Positions 20,910-59,096 of a stretch of DNA of 64,000 nt are shown here, piece by piece. The stretch spans positions 584,008 through 648,007 of the forward strand of contig JBFWNU010000001.1 in assembly GCA_050250895.1 (NCBI GenBank), read 5' to 3'. Numbering within the stretch: the stretch's first letter is position 1; every line of letters starts with the position of its first letter. This stretch comes from Vulcanimicrobiota bacterium (GTDB lineage Bacteria; Vulcanimicrobiota; Xenobia; Xenobiales; JADMJV01). The notes below the pieces were generated by a model, which did not search any database, was not told the DNA's origin, and was given only the letters and a program-made list of their open reading frames with translations. Both the position numbers and the translations under genes were made by a program.

Positions 20910-23177
20910 ATGCACGCTTTGCCTTTTAGCGCTTACCGAGGGGCCCCCACCCGCCCGGCTTCGTCATGCCCCGACGCGGTCAGCCAGCGCCTCAGCTGGT
21001 TGGGTCGCCAAAAGCAGCCCTCGGCCAGCCTGGCTGAAAGCAGACTGGCCCGCGAAGGGGACCAGGCCGGGTCGGACCAGCTGCTGCTCAACCTGCTCGG
21101 CGGCTTGCCTAACGAATTTATGCTGCAGCAATCGGTGCCCCTGGCCGTCTCGACCCTCGAGCGTCTTGGCCCTGATGAAGATTCGGTTCGGGCCGTCACC
21201 CACGGCGCCCAGGCGCTCTTTCACGAAGGCCAACCGGCCCTGGCCGAGCAGGCCATCGGTTTGCTCGAGAAATGGCGCCAATCGGGAGAGCTGATGGCTC
21301 CCGAAGGCGACTGGAAAGTCTTGCTCGAGGGGCCGCTGGCGGTCGAGAAAAATCAGGTCAAATCAGCCCACGAAACGCCGCCCGAGCTACCTCCCCTGGC
21401 CTGGGCCGAGGCCCGCGCTCTGCTCGACGACGGGACCCCCCTCACGGCGGCGGAATCGGCCCTGGCGGCCACCTTCCTGGTCCGGGCACGACCCTCCGGC
21501 GAAGCTTTCACCAAGCTGACGAAAGCCTTCTGTGAGCAGCCCGAGTTCTTTCGGCCTCACGCCTCCTACCTCGGCCAGATGGCCTCGCGCATGCAAAGTC
21601 TCAGCTGGCAGTATCCCGAGCCCGAACCCCTCTACGGGCGCGAGCCGCTTCACGACTACTACGCCAACTTCATACCCAATTTTCCCAGGGCGGTCGACGG
21701 CGACCTCGTTCAACAGCAGCTTTTGCCTCTCACCCACGAATTGTATTTCAATGACCGCGCCACCGAACTCTGGCGGGATCTGTGGTCACGAAAGCCCGAA
21801 ACTTTCGCCCTTTGCCTGGACGATCTGGGCCGACGCGGCCCCAAGGAGCCGGGCTCGTTCGACCTGTTAGTGCTGCAAGAAGCGGTTCGCCGCGATTGGC
21901 GGCCCGAGCCCGAACAGGCCGACTGGTTGGCCAGCCGCCTCATTCGAGGCGAGGGTGTCACGCTGGACGACAAGGTCTTTGGCACCAGCCTGGTGCTGCT
22001 CGCCAAGCAACCCCCCGAGCTGAACCTTCCCGACAGCCAGGGCCAGAGCAAGCCCCTGGGTCAGGCTCTCTTCGATCGTATCCTCCACGACCCCGACCCT
22101 GGCCTGCTGCTCTTTCTCTCTCACGACGGTCCTGTCAGCCAGGCATTCTACCAACTGGCCACGCCCGACCTCGAGCGTCTCGAGGAACTGGTCAAAGCCG
22201 GCCTGAGCCGCGGTGGCATCGAGGCCATGGAAAAGCCTGAAGAGGCCGCCCTGGTGATGCTCGACCGCCTCGAGCCCAAACGCCTTCAACCCCTGCTTGG
22301 CGCCGAACTCGAGCGCGAACAGAGCTACTTCGTGCTCACCGACGTGGTCAACCACTTTCGCACCCGGGCCCTGGCCAACTTCGCCGGCGAGCCTCGCCAG
22401 GGCTTGCGCATGTTAATGGCCGGCGACTCGGCCAAGCTCACCAAAGCTCATCTGCAAGACTTTCTTTCCGCCGCCCCGGTCGAGCCGGACGCCTGGTGGA
22501 ACGACTTCCATCAATCGGACCTCGAAAAACTGACCCCTGACCAGAAGGCCTCGTTCCTGCTCTACGAAAACTGGACGCGCCAGGATGCCGGCGAACGCCA
22601 GCAGTTTCTCGACTGGATGGGGCCTCGCCTTGAGAAGCTCGGCGATTCGGGCCTGCGCACCGCCTATGACCAGATGCGACGCGAGCAAATCGAGGCCAAC
22701 CTCGACCAGTTGACCCAACCGAGCGATCTGTCTTGCGCCTTCTCGTTGGTGGTGAAAAATCAGATCATGGCGGATAAAGTCTACGACCTCGACCGGGGCG
22801 ACATCTGGCAGGCTTCAGCCGCCGCCTTCCACCGAGGCTTGGCCGAGTGCACCGACTGGCGTGGCGAACTGGCTGAGGTCAGCACCCAGGGCCACTCGCT
22901 CGAGATCGCGCGCTATCTCAGTCAACAGGTGGGCGACGACAACCTGGCCGACTACTGGCCGGGCTTCGCGGCCACTCTCAAAGCGCGCCCGGGGGCCGAA
23001 CTACGCGAGGTGGCCGCCGACCTGCGAGCCTATGCCGAGGCCCGCAAGAACGGACTCGACCACGCCGGAGCCCTGCGCACCCTGGTGGTGGGCGAGGCCG
23101 CCCCCATCACCCGCGAACTGCAACTAGAAATCGACCAGCTCTGGGTCGGGGACATCTCGCTCGAGATCCACGACTAG
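20910..23177 (+). CDS. Large hypothetical helical protein
   Basis: 755-aa ORF with coding-like codon use; no family recognised. Confidence 0.7.
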   Translation: MHALPFSAYRGAPTRPASSCPDAVSQRLSWLGRQKQPSASLAESRLAREGDQAGSDQLLLNLLGGLPNEFMLQQSVPLAVSTLERLGPDEDSVRAVTHGAQALFHEGQPALAEQAIGLLEKWRQSGELMAPEGDWKVLLEGPLAVEKNQVKSAHETPPELPPLAWAEARALLDDGTPLTAAESALAATFLVRARPSGEAFTKLTKAFCEQPEFFRPHASYLGQMASRMQSLSWQYPEPEPLYGREPLHDYYANFIPNFPRAVDGDLVQQQLLPLTHELYFNDRATELWRDLWSRKPETFALCLDDLGRRGPKEPGSFDLLVLQEAVRRDWRPEPEQADWLASRLIRGEGVTLDDKVFGTSLVLLAKQPPELNLPDSQGQSKPLGQALFDRILHDPDPGLLLFLSHDGPVSQAFYQLATPDLERLEELVKAGLSRGGIEAMEKPEEAALVMLDRLEPKRLQPLLGAELEREQSYFVLTDVVNHFRTRALANFAGEPRQGLRMLMAGDSAKLTKAHLQDFLSAAPVEPDAWWNDFHQSDLEKLTPDQKASFLLYENWTRQDAGERQQFLDWMGPRLEKLGDSGLRTAYDQMRREQIEANLDQLTQPSDLSCAFSLVVKNQIMADKVYDLDRGDIWQASAAAFHRGLAECTDWRGELAEVSTQGHSLEIARYLSQQVGDDNLADYWPGFAATLKARPGAELREVAADLRAYAEARKNGLDHAGALRTLVVGEAAPITRELQLEIDQLWVGDISLEIHD

Positions 23178-23220
23178 AGCCGCCCAAGGAACAGCGGTCT
23201 GGGAGGCGAAAAGACCGCCC

Positions 23221-23688
23221 ATGCAACTCGACGAGATCTGGCAATTGCTGGAACAATCCGCTCCGCTGAGTCAACTGATAGAGGTGCTCAACGAGCTAGA
23301 AGAGTCCGACTTCGAGCAACTCGGCGAAGCGCTGTCCCAACTTGGCCCTCAGGAACGCTTTCACGCCGTGCAGGTCCTGTCTGAAGCGGGCAATCCCGAG
23401 GCCATGGCCGCTCTTGAGTTTCTCTTTGAAGACCCCGAGGAAGAGATCCGGGCTCGCGCCCTCGAGGGCTACTACGAGTTTGGCAGCGACGAGGCTCAAC
23501 TCGAACGCCTCGGCCGACTGCTGCAGGCAGATCCGTCCGAACGGGTCCGTTGCTCGGCCGTCTTGGCCCTGGCCGTTACCGGCCAACCCGAGGCCCGGCG
23601 CCTACTCGAGGGCGCCGCCGAAGAAGACCCCTTCCCCAGCGTGCGCCGCCAGGCCCAGCAAGCCCTGGCTCGATTCGCCTGGCGCTAG
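23221..23688 (+). CDS. HEAT-repeat protein
   Basis: Repeats DPEEEIRARA, DPSERVRCSAVLAL, DPFPSVRRQAQQAL; acidic. Confidence 0.85.
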   Translation: MQLDEIWQLLEQSAPLSQLIEVLNELEESDFEQLGEALSQLGPQERFHAVQVLSEAGNPEAMAALEFLFEDPEEEIRARALEGYYEFGSDEAQLERLGRLLQADPSERVRCSAVLALAVTGQPEARRLLEGAAEEDPFPSVRRQAQQALARFAWR

Positions 23689-23770
23689 GCAAATTTACAT
23701 TTCAGCAACAAAAGTCTGCTAGACTGCTTACTCGGGGGTCGGTAAAGGACTACTGGAGGTCCATCTGCTC

Positions 23771-57848: not shown

Positions 57849-57882
57849 CCAACCGGTAGCGGCAGATCGAAGACGGTAGGAG

Positions 57883-57908
57883 CGGAGGCCTGTGGGCCTC
57901 CGTTTTCT
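57883..57908 (+). terminator. Intrinsic terminator after etfA
   Basis: CGGAGGCC-TGTG-GGCCTCCG-TTTTCT. Confidence 0.85.
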
Positions 57909-57989
57909 GTTGCCAAACATGCAACAATCGAGACACACTTTCGGGGGCCGGAACGTGATACTCCATGGCTAGCAACAAAGGAGAACGCC

Positions 57990-59096
57990 ATGCATATCAG
58001 TCCTGCCCTACCGCGCCCCGCGGATGCTCCCAAGAAGTGGACCATCCTGCAGTATTCCGCCGCCGACAACGACCTTTACAACTGGATGGTCCAGGATATC
58101 GACGAGGCCGAGGTGGTGGGCTCGACCGATACCATGAACCTGGTGGCCCAGGTCGACCACGGCTCCCGCGGCGGCTGCCAGAGGATGCAGCTGATCAAAG
58201 ACCCGGCCCGCGGCATTCACTCGCCGGTCGTGCAGGACCTCGGCAGCACCAACATGTCGGATCCCCACACCCTGGCCGACTTCATCAAGTGGGGCGTCAA
58301 GAACTATCCCGCCGAAAACTACATGGTCATTATCTCCGACCACGGTGACGGCTGGAAAGGCGCCTGCCAGGACTGGAGCCACGATGGCTGGATGAGCCTG
58401 CCCCAGATTCGCCAGGGCCTGGAAGAAGCCCGCCAGGAGACCGGTCGCAAGATCGACGTGCTGGGCTTTGACGCCTGCCTGATGGCCTCGAGCGAAGTCG
58501 GCTATGAGCTGCGCAACGAAGCCAGCTATCTGGTCGCCTCAGAAGAGACCGAAGGCGCCTCGGGCTGGCCCTACACGCGCCTGCTCAACGGCAACATGCT
58601 GGCCACCTTCACCGATACCCTATCGACCCGCCTGAACCTCGACCCCAAAGAGCTGGCCAAGCTGGTCGTCGCCACGGCCGAGAAGGATCAAGACAACCTG
58701 CCCACCATGAGCGCCATCGACCTGTCCAAGATGGACAACCTGGCCGCCGCCGTCAGCAACTTCGGAGACAAACTCGGGACCACCTGGACCAGCAAGTCGA
58801 CCCTCAAAGGCATGGCCGACGAGACTCAGGAGTTCACCGGCTACAAAGACCTGACCGACTTCGCCGAAAAAGTCGGCAGCAACTGGCGCATCTGGGACTT
58901 CGGTCTGTGGAGCGCCGCCCGCAACGTGATTAGTGCCGCCAAAGACGCTGTCATTGCCGAGCAGCACGACAAGCAGGCCTATCCCAACGCCAAGGGGATC
59001 ACCATCGAACTCAGCAATGTCGGCGGCGAATACCAGAACACCCAATTCGCCAAAGACACCAAGTGGGACGAGGGCGTGGCTCGCCTATCCGAGTAA
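57990..59096 (+). CDS. Clostripain-family (C11) cysteine peptidase
   Basis: WTILQYSAADNDL, NMSDP, catalytic DHG and FDACLM, ASEE, GWPY; AAGGAG RBS; no Sec signal. Confidence 0.92.
   Translation: MHISPALPRPADAPKKWTILQYSAADNDLYNWMVQDIDEAEVVGSTDTMNLVAQVDHGSRGGCQRMQLIKDPARGIHSPVVQDLGSTNMSDPHTLADFIKWGVKNYPAENYMVIISDHGDGWKGACQDWSHDGWMSLPQIRQGLEEARQETGRKIDVLGFDACLMASSEVGYELRNEASYLVASEETEGASGWPYTRLLNGNMLATFTDTLSTRLNLDPKELAKLVVATAEKDQDNLPTMSAIDLSKMDNLAAAVSNFGDKLGTTWTSKSTLKGMADETQEFTGYKDLTDFAEKVGSNWRIWDFGLWSAARNVISAAKDAVIAEQHDKQAYPNAKGITIELSNVGGEYQNTQFAKDTKWDEGVARLSE

Follow-up and report, generated by a model that had tools for sequence, protein, structure and literature searches.

What would carry a degradative enzyme out of a bacterial cell if its N-terminus holds no classical signal peptide? 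This question arises from a 64,000-nucleotide stretch of DNA from a Vulcanimicrobiota bacterium (C1:584008-648007 of genome G000, hereafter the window), in which six proteins, among them a subtilase, a clostripain-family protease and a peptidoglycan hydrolase, begin without a Sec signal. A preliminary description of the window had interpreted these N-termini as leaders for a flagellar-type type III secretion system (T3SS). Here, we describe an N-terminal leader that is conserved as a peptide on unrelated proteins of this genome and largely replaces Sec signals on secreted-type enzymes, and we find that many of its genes share a promoter of the leaderless-mRNA type. On balance, we favor the interpretation that the subtilase, the clostripain and, in part, a third protein (47846; proteins of the window are named by the position of their start) belong to a set of at least 109 proteins with a lineage-specific modular leader, which probably serves as a sorting tag, either for non-classical export or for some handling that comes ahead of it.

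An N-terminal leader shared by unrelated proteins

We analyzed the whole genome (9.5 Mb, 62.7% G+C, 99.6% complete) with our own rough gene call, which gave 8458 genes at a coding density of 91%, and observed the same N-terminus on dozens of unrelated proteins. The leader is approximately 35-45 residues long and consists of a start M-[K/Q/R/V/I]-I, a spacer rich in Pro, Ala, Ser and Arg that lacks acidic residues and usually contains R-P, and a motif P-x-D-x-[V/F]-x-[L/P]-[S/G] near residue 30. N-termini were scored with an iterated two-block scoring matrix, with internal Met-started segments as decoys, and a gene was counted as a member when its N-score was above 3 and its motif score above 9 together. 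Both thresholds were passed by 109 of 8091 genes, compared with 2 of 3808 decoy sets. Among the 5067 proteins with 250 residues or more, a strict regular expression for the motif matched 39 within residues 15-75, versus 6, 15 and 4 in three later intervals. In the 109 members, the motif Asp has a median index of 30, and position 3 is occupied by Ile in 75 cases and by Val in 13.

The proteins that share this N-terminus are otherwise dissimilar: their post-leader parts fell into 88 BLASTP groups, 80 of which were singletons. A MAFFT alignment of the 60 longest members gave MxI...P...DxVxLS as the sole consensus, to which an alignment of 48 leaders added the central R-P. The conserved I, D, V, L and S are encoded by mixed synonymous codons, near genome usage, and the leader is therefore conserved as a peptide; the same codon usage rules out an element that acts at the RNA level in place of a peptide. 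Residues 10-25 are enriched in Pro (2.8-fold), Ser (1.6-fold) and Thr (1.4-fold) and depleted in Leu (0.33-fold) and Asp (0.36-fold). Outside the scored blocks, Pro, Ala, Ser, Arg and Thr are over-represented in the spacer, and Leu, Asp, Glu and Trp under-represented. The first 15 residues are free of acidic residues in 98/109 members, compared with 31% of other genes. In 79/109 members, no hydrophobic segment occurs within 80 residues after the motif (throughout, the presence or absence of a hydrophobic region, or h-region, was judged by a hydrophobicity heuristic, not SignalP). No named family in Pfam or NCBIfam covers the leader, and searches of the literature on Eremiobacterota/Xenobia, Eremiobacterota signal peptides, Vulcanimicrobiota secretion and extended signal peptides found no account of such a leader. 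The leader family is genuine, statistically solid and apparently undescribed.

Cargo and co-regulation

Cargo families were assigned with Pfam on the 60 longest of the 109 members. They include S8 (5), MAM-like (7), PAD_porph (4), C11 (2) and M36 (2), along with alpha/beta hydrolases, lipases, M13, alpha-amylase, glycoside hydrolases, endonuclease I and GDPD. To judge from these assignments, the cargo families are mostly those of typical exoenzymes. Several members are small, Gly-rich hydrophobic proteins that are bacteriocin-like.

Leader genes also share upstream elements. In 40/109 leader genes, the start codon is preceded by a TAnnnT hexamer whose end lies 4-8 nt away, compared with 6.6% of other genes (p = 2e-19), and the longer pattern TTYYAG-N9-11-TAnnnT-N4-8-start, mostly with TTTCAG and TAGACT, precedes 10/109 leader genes versus 0.5%. 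The arrangement seen at many leader genes is TTTCAG-N10-TAGACT-N5-6-ATG, at times with a second TTTYAG approximately 11 nt upstream; example sites lie upstream of C5:45705, C2:401701 and C3:139961. Such a layout would fit leaderless mRNAs whose transcription depends on an activator or sigma factor of their own. It also supports the called starts independently.

Leader-like N-termini in the window

All six N-termini singled out in the preliminary description are present in the window at the positions given there. None of them has the features of a Sec signal (a positive n-region, an h-region of 7-15 residues and a cleavage site by about residue 35), and the contrast that had been drawn with other exported proteins of the window holds, as classic Sec or lipoprotein signals are present at 639(-), 10082(-), 10886, 17152, 20116, 32790(-) and 51155. 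Frames in the window were started at the first ATG, GTG or TTG after the preceding stop. An upstream start that supplies a Sec signal, which would have undone the type III interpretation, was found for none of the six in their own frames. Specifically, 20910, 23771, 29109(-) and 57990 already use the first start after the upstream stop, making a 5' extension impossible, and 47846 and 48924 can be extended solely from TTG codons, by 18 and 15 residues, respectively, that are not signal-like. The subtilase and 20910 starts are preceded by stop codons at a distance of 2-3 codons, and the 47 in-frame codons upstream of the clostripain start contain no start codon. GTG is the start codon of the subtilase (29109(-)), 47846, 48924 and FliE (5830). 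The called starts of the subtilase, 48924, the clostripain and FliE are supported because AGGAG-type ribosome sites precede them, with GGAGAGG before the GTG of 48924. Upstream of 47846, a TACGAT hexamer ends 6 nt before the GTG, as part of a diverged promoter copy, CCTCAG-N10-TACGAT-N6-GTG (window 47807-47845).

No gene in the window passes both leader thresholds (Table 1), and the evidence on the window proteins comes in part from their relatives within the genome. The subtilase has 15 full-length paralogues (tblastn), nearly all of them with M-I-S/N/T or M-x-I at the start, after which come an Ala/Pro-rich stretch and a motif such as A-D-Q-V-E-L-S. Likewise, two clostripain paralogues (C1:734825 and C7:210463) carry the full leader immediately before the C11 domain. 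The subtilase, the clostripain and partly 47846, i.e. two to three of the six, carry parts of the leader, whereas 20910 and 23771 are merely rich in Pro, Ala, Ser and Thr. The six had also been presented as one class of lytic enzymes; this does not hold for 20910 and 23771, which match no Pfam or NCBIfam family and are negative on both leader scores. FliE, which had been said to share the style of these N-termini, is weakly positive on the first block and lacks the motif. The S8, C11, PG_binding_1 and Hydrolase_2 matches are all above their Pfam cut-offs.

Table 1. Features discussed in the text, with leader scores where computed. Positions without a contig prefix are those of the window.
Feature	Coordinates	Strand	N-score	Motif score	Remarks
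Subtilase, 746 residues	26869..29109	-	8.6	6.2	GTG start; Pfam: fervidolysin-type prodomain, Peptidase_S8 (187 bits), MAM-like C-terminal domain
Subtilase leader, approximately residues 1-45	28975..29109	-			M-I-I start, Ala/Pro spacer, diverged motif ESSSFT
Clostripain-family (C11) protease	57990..59096	+	10.2	no motif	Pfam Peptidase_C11 at residues 22-325 (149 bits); shortened leader M-H-I-S-P..., approximately 15-20 residues
324-residue protein (47846)	47846..48820	+	-3.3	8.3 (DVVALS)	Pro/Ala/Lys-rich N-terminus; DVVALS at residue 33; no Pfam or NCBIfam family
Peptidoglycan hydrolase (48924)	48924..50192	+	-2.4	6.5	Marginal; Pro/Ala/Lys-rich N-terminus; Pfam/NCBIfam: 2x PG_binding_1 (111 bits), SleB-type Hydrolase_2 (32 bits); no Sec signal
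755-residue protein (20910)	20910..23177	+	negative	negative	Polar N-terminus; no Pfam or NCBIfam family; outside the leader family
510-residue protein (23771)	23771..25303	+	negative	negative	Pro/Ala/Thr-rich N-terminus; no Pfam or NCBIfam family; outside the leader family
FliE			4.2	no motif	
Flagellar block, set 1 of two	1621..10092				FlhA, FlhB, FliR, FliQ, FliE, FlgB, FlgC, FliF, FliG, FliH; Pfam matches for all except FliQ and FlgB
FlhA C-domain proteins without membrane domain	C6:529281-530666, C1:2013805-2014935, C1:2473655-2476609, C7:121829-122929				
FlhA C-domain proteins without membrane domain	C1:1126937-1128199, C7:117220-118743, C1:2008491-2009819, C8:31611-33212				
Second SecA, 1194 residues	C12:63314-66898			13.7	Motif P-V-E-S-F-E-A-S in the N-terminal extension

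Several observations concern the individual window proteins. By eye, the C-terminal domain of 47846 has a nucleophile-elbow-like motif, G-H-S-A-G, and is a probable alpha/beta hydrolase. Its N-terminus and that of 48924 (window 47846-50192) have in common a Lys/Pro/Ala-rich module with F-x-x-F-A-S-x-W-L-G-x-G; in the whole genome, this form was found in these two adjacent genes only. The Atlas models of 20910 (helical-repeat leads only) and 23771 (a nucleotidyltransferase-like fold) are of low confidence and below the service's own bars. As read by eye from the translation, the C-terminal third of 23771 is Gly/Ala-rich and hydrophobic, and resembles the small Gly-rich leader-bearing proteins elsewhere in the genome. 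Both proteins lie in a run of eukaryote-like repeat proteins and uncharacterized proteins (window 20116-25303) that comprises the ankyrin-repeat lipoprotein 20116, 20910, the HEAT-repeat protein 23221 and 23771. Finally, the start of the subtilase (window 28975-29109(-)), I-I-N-Q-N-L-S-A-I-N, resembles the flagellin start at C1:571318, R-I-N-Q-N-I-G-A-M-V; the likeness is probably due to chance, as paralogues and orthologues keep only I-N-x-N.

Distribution among relatives

We surveyed 201 sampled genomes of the phylum with a profile built from 48 leaders of G000. Few candidates per genome were scored, so that the phylum counts are lower bounds, and the underlying leader alignment (A2) comes from G000 alone and misses the subtilase-type variant. 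The tallies for the leader profile, for FHIPEP and for SecA paralogues include one unpublished genome (G177), which supports no claim. The profile recovers 49 sites in G000 and matches 20/201 genomes, nearly all of the same order (7/15, 4/19 and 5/5 genomes in families f1, f2 and f3); in the large family f15, 2/114 genomes were matched, weakly. For the most part, the leader is thus restricted to a single class of Eremiobacterota/Vulcanimicrobiota. When more candidates were scored, one genome of family f3 yielded 24 sites, and several genomes of G000's own family yielded 0-5. The subtilase orthologues in those low-count genomes carry the leader in variant form, as does the single orthologue in the 2.4-Mb genome G003. 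Of 20 loci with subtilase orthologues in five other genomes, approximately 9 pass both thresholds, and the h-region heuristic flags only 1. Orthologue subtilase leaders have a fuller form that ends P-S/G-E-S-A/S-S-L-S-S. Among the 120 closest public subtilase homologues, 119 have no h-region in the first 60 residues, and 104 start M-x-I or M-I-x in independent gene calls. In relatives, leaders also occur on proteins other than subtilases, and they are conserved across families of the order. Six public sequencing runs, kept as contigs, yielded a word share of at most 0.09.

A proposed sorting tag and its alternatives

We propose that the leader is probably a sorting tag that a trans-acting factor recognizes in the cytoplasm. 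It would single out a co-regulated set of proteins, most of them degradative or toxin-like, for export by a non-classical route or for some handling that precedes export. That it directs export at all, and through which machine, belongs to the inferred part of this proposal.

Several observations weigh against this proposal. A hydrophobic segment does follow the leader in 30/109 members, 6 of them of the lipoprotein type with a lipobox and 24 of other types, and at least four of these segments end, by eye, in Ala-x-Ala; in these 30 members, the leader does not replace a Sec signal but is joined to one. The cargo includes cytoplasm-type enzymes, namely a dimeric-type cytidine deaminase, a uridine-kinase-like P-loop protein (NCBIfam) and an adenosine deaminase (Pfam), and therefore mere release into the medium cannot account for everything. 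When the neighbors within four genes of the 109 leader genes were clustered, no family was enriched and no machine was implicated. The gene calls and the leader model are our own rough constructions, trained on G000 itself, and a few of the 109 members are upstream mis-extensions, with a glycosyltransferase match as one likely example and a P450 member as an uncertain one. The proposal as a whole is drawn from sequence.

Two of these points, the cytoplasm-type enzymes and a gene context that implicates no export machine, would suit a different explanation, in which the leader is not an export signal at all. It would instead be a regulatory tail of one regulon, such as a degron, a docking site or a feature of leaderless-mRNA translation, and the enzymes would act in the cell or be freed by lysis. 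The excess of leaderless-type promoters agrees with this explanation, and an alternating D-x-V-x-L might suit strand-type docking to a recognition domain. However, members with ribosome-binding sites (the subtilase and the clostripain) retain the N-terminal element, R-P and D-x-V-x-L-S lie too deep in the protein for an effect on initiation, and their synonymous codons vary. Moreover, prodomain subtilases with MAM-like or choice-of-anchor-J-like C-termini, M36, endonuclease I, amylase, lipases and the peptidoglycan hydrolase are extracytoplasmic by family. We regard a regulatory tail as distinctly unlikely.

It is very improbable, in our judgment, that the family is an artefact, that is, a chance likeness of low-complexity Pro/Ala-rich N-termini or a set of miscalled starts hiding ordinary signals. 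The decoy control speaks against it, as do the stops just upstream of the subtilase and 20910 starts, the -10 hexamer or ribosome site at a fixed distance from called starts, and the recurrence of the N-termini in the independent public gene calls. The spacer is indeed of low complexity and our gene caller is crude, as the mis-extensions illustrate, and 20910 and 23771 probably have just polar N-termini. The artefact explanation is largely refuted for the family and stands only for these two proteins.

A possible flagellar type III route

If the leader is a sorting tag for export, two concrete candidate routes can be named, flagellar type III export and a Sec-linked route. In the first, which is the one originally proposed for the window, the leader would be the export signal of a flagellar-type type III apparatus and its bearers an effector repertoire, secreted or injected for predation or antagonism. 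We consider this route possible but rather unlikely. Of the repertoire originally claimed, the part that stood is that a special leader marks a large set of signal-less secreted-type enzymes; the flagellar route itself gained no positive evidence in the tests that were run, and it is one live option rather than a supported one.

Besides two full FlhA genes, which lie in flagellar-type loci, the genome encodes eight FlhA C-domain proteins that stand alone (Table 1). In set 1, which lies in the window, FlgB was named from its position in the block, having no Pfam match, and FliQ from its BLASTP likeness to the FliQ of set 2. Genes for flagellin, FlgK/L, FliD, MotA/B and the L/P-ring lie 5-40 kb upstream of the window and were named by eye, except for two Flagellin_N matches. 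Set 2 (C1:1458932-1476156) comprises FlgB, FlgC, FliE-J, a soluble lytic transglycosylase (SLT), a FliK-like protein, one rod/hook-like protein, FliM/N/O-R, FlhB and FlhA, and has no flagellin. The only flagellin, FlgK/L and FliD of the genome adjoin set 1, which is patchy among relatives, and set 2 (with FlhA2) is conserved order-wide. A third FliF-like gene (C2:555057) was set aside as solitary and outside any T3SS locus.

The leader resembles a type III signal in several respects. It lies at the extreme N-terminus and has no h-region, a feature that is compatible with type III export and not specific to it; it is rich in Pro, Ser, Thr and Arg and poor in Leu, Asp and Glu, with the noted lack of early acidic residues. 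In addition, early flagellar rod and hook subunits are reported to carry an N-terminal hydrophobic signal and a gate recognition motif (PMC8983047), and the two-element layout of the leader resembles these two discrete signals. However, the motif of the leader, D-x-V/F-x-L/P-S/G, is not of the gate-recognition form F-x-x-x-hydrophobic, and the flagellar axial proteins of the genome score low on it. The hydrophobic segments that directly follow the leader in the 6 lipoprotein-type and 24 other members make no sense for a type III substrate. Known type III substrate signals are degenerate, and the conserved motif is unlike them. Structure prediction of the A2-alignment leader with the cytoplasmic domains of FlhA2 and FlhB2 gave a score of 0.02, which we take neither for nor against binding.

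As to cargo, the cytoplasm-type enzymes suggest action inside another cell, and the SLT transglycosylase of set 2 (C1:1468404-1469030) has no Sec signal by eye; it is probably a rod-associated wall hydrolase that this system already exports. Lysobacter enzymogenes offers a precedent: a block of its flagellar T3SS reportedly impaired the secretion of a protease, a glucanase and another protein (PMC7688988). Against this, neither flagellar set is accompanied by secretin or needle genes, and small acidic chaperone-like neighbors occur at 8/109 leader genes compared with a background of 9.5%, which is no enrichment. Nor do the leader genes share flagellar regulation. By eye, CCGATA-type -10 elements lie upstream of fliC, fliD, motA and flgF, and TTTAG precedes those of motA and flgF; a sigma-28-like pattern TTAG-N14-18-CCGATA, as at motA and flgF, was found at 0/109 leader genes, and a plain CCGATA at 5/109 versus 218/8349 other genes.

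The distribution of the machinery speaks on both sides. An FlhA2 orthologue is present in all 9 genera and 38/40 genomes of the order, with 76-95% identity where the whole protein aligns, but FHIPEP occurs in 189/201 genomes of the phylum and the leader model in 20/201, which implies that the machine long predates the leader. Co-occurrence with the flhA clade of the window had been suggested as a check on the flagellar route. The window type of FlhA is found only in some larger genomes, FlhA2 is order-wide and FHIPEP is near-universal, and the check was uninformative; likewise, leaders in genomes without a T3SS, which would have spoken against the route, could not discriminate. Co-occurrence cannot test the flagellar route because of this near-universal FHIPEP.

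By eye, leader genes lie beside one of the eight stand-alone FlhA C-domain genes. At C7:113653-116287, the genes for the cytidine deaminase and the uridine-kinase-like P-loop protein stand side by side, both with full leaders, and the FlhA C-domain gene at C7:117220-118743 is their neighbor. A Cys/His-rich insert is present in the deaminase leader, and C-G-C or C-x-C inserts occur in several other leaders. Within the FlhA C-domain set, one member appears by eye to have an XRE-type helix-turn-helix N-terminus, and a 984-residue member has a multi-pass-looking N-terminal part that includes a FliG-start-like stretch.

A possible Sec-linked route and other machines

In the second route, the leader would be a cytoplasmic N-terminal extension that acts together with Sec, docking a targeting factor or timing translocation; SecA would carry the signal-less members even though they have no classical h-region. 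We judge this route unlikely. It accounts for the 30/109 leaders that are immediately followed by a hydrophobic segment, often past a Trp-Lys/Arg junction and in six cases with a lipobox, and it has a precedent in the long autotransporter signals reported to have a conserved N-terminal extension (PMC2805444). The 79/109 members without any hydrophobic segment stand against it; to our knowledge, no known Sec route takes proteins without a hydrophobic segment by a defined signal.

The genome encodes a single SecY and a second SecA with a 170-residue Pro/Ala-rich N-terminal extension that holds a leader-like motif (Table 1); its gene is followed by two genes that are ExbD/TolR-like by eye. Extra SecA paralogues are common in the class, and orthologues of the second SecA (E <= 1e-170) are found only in families f1 and f3, in 13/201 genomes including G000. 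Yet G003 (96% complete) and G064 (90% complete), each with only one SecA_DEAD match, have subtilases with full leaders, and genomes with up to six SecA paralogues are unmatched by the leader model, with 0 of 150 scored candidates in G066. Given these single-SecA genomes with leaders and multi-SecA genomes without a match to the model, a second SecA is not required.

Other machines that use N-terminal signals were not found in the genome, which counts in favor of the type III route. The sheath families of T6SS (type VI secretion systems) and phages, PF05943 (VipB) and PF04984 (Phage_sheath_1), have no match in this 99.6% complete genome, and with no sheath gene found, we ruled out cargo of a T6SS or an extracellular contractile injection system. 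The single C39 match is a stand-alone frame of 233 residues without an ATP-binding cassette (ABC) domain, and no C39-ABC exporter was found in the genome. A double-glycine route through a peptidase-containing ABC transporter was ruled out, since G-G follows the motif in a minority of leaders only and a fused ABC exporter is missing. Genes for machines like type IV pili or type II secretion systems are extremely expanded in the genome, with 71 GspF/PilC-like platform paralogues and 29 GspE/PilB/PilT-like ATPases. Near leader genes, GspF-like genes were unenriched (6/71, p = 0.73), as were GspE-like and PilT-like genes and a recurrent uncharacterized family.

Implications

The N-terminal sorting signals catalogued so far are few, namely the Sec, Tat, lipoprotein, prepilin, double-glycine and type III signals. 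If our interpretation is true, the leader would be a further sequence-defined class of sorting signal, carried by over 100 unrelated proteins of a phylum that has hardly been studied by experiment. The list of leader proteins would be a ready candidate for the exported or effector proteome, the leader peptide a bait for its receptor, and the promoter motif the definition of a regulon. There is also a consequence for annotation, as signal-peptide predictors will call most exoenzymes of this lineage cytoplasmic.

As a more far-reaching and doubtful speculation, the leader might be the address label of an undescribed route, either a part-time flagellum-derived effector exporter or a new translocon, by which more than 100 proteins under one leaderless-mRNA regulon would be sent outside or into other cells. 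The lineage is uncultured and possibly predatory, and the cargo of such a route would include proteases, lipases, nucleases, a peptidoglycan hydrolase, nucleoside-modifying enzymes and small membrane-active proteins. Should the flagellar route prove right, no larger repertoire of flagellar-secreted proteins would be known, and none before it would have had a recognizable consensus signal.

Comparison with known systems

Leaders of double-glycine peptides and of ribosomal natural products are, like the leader described here, N-terminal leaders of 15-40 residues with a short conserved strand-like motif. Some motifs in G000 are likewise followed by G-G, but G-G is not conserved, and most members are large enzymes.

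Besides autotransporters, YSIRK-type and accessory-Sec long signals are further examples of a conserved extension before a Sec signal, and some SecA2 substrates have no signals. The reported extended signal regions of autotransporters and two-partner secretion proteins (PMC2805444) resemble the 30/109 members in which a conserved extension lies upstream of a Sec signal; unlike them, 79/109 members have the extension but no Sec signal, and the sequence is unrelated, with no Pfam match to such a region. SecA2 in mycobacteria and some Gram-positives handles special substrates (PMC6333443), and G000 also has a second SecA. However, SecA2 substrates are not known to share a leader motif, and leaders of the G000 type also occur in single-SecA relatives.

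Early flagellar subunits (PMC8983047) and the leader both begin with a hydrophobic residue close to the N-terminal end, and in both a spacer of roughly 25-30 residues separates it from a second motif; they differ in the second element, as set out above, and the rod, hook and FliE proteins of G000 are without the leader motif. Further parallels are the reported flagellar secretion in Lysobacter enzymogenes OH11 (PMC7688988) and of the Campylobacter jejuni Cia proteins (PMC2764114). Shared features are an amino-terminal signal of an uncleaved style, a cargo that includes proteases and other degradative enzymes, and a proposed predatory or antagonistic role. Unlike their secreted proteins, a quarter of the G000 members have hydrophobic or lipoprotein signals and the genes lie outside the sigma-28 regulon. 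Moreover, no consensus is known to have been reported for the Lysobacter and Campylobacter signals, whereas the leader of G000 keeps three positions conserved over more than 100 proteins.

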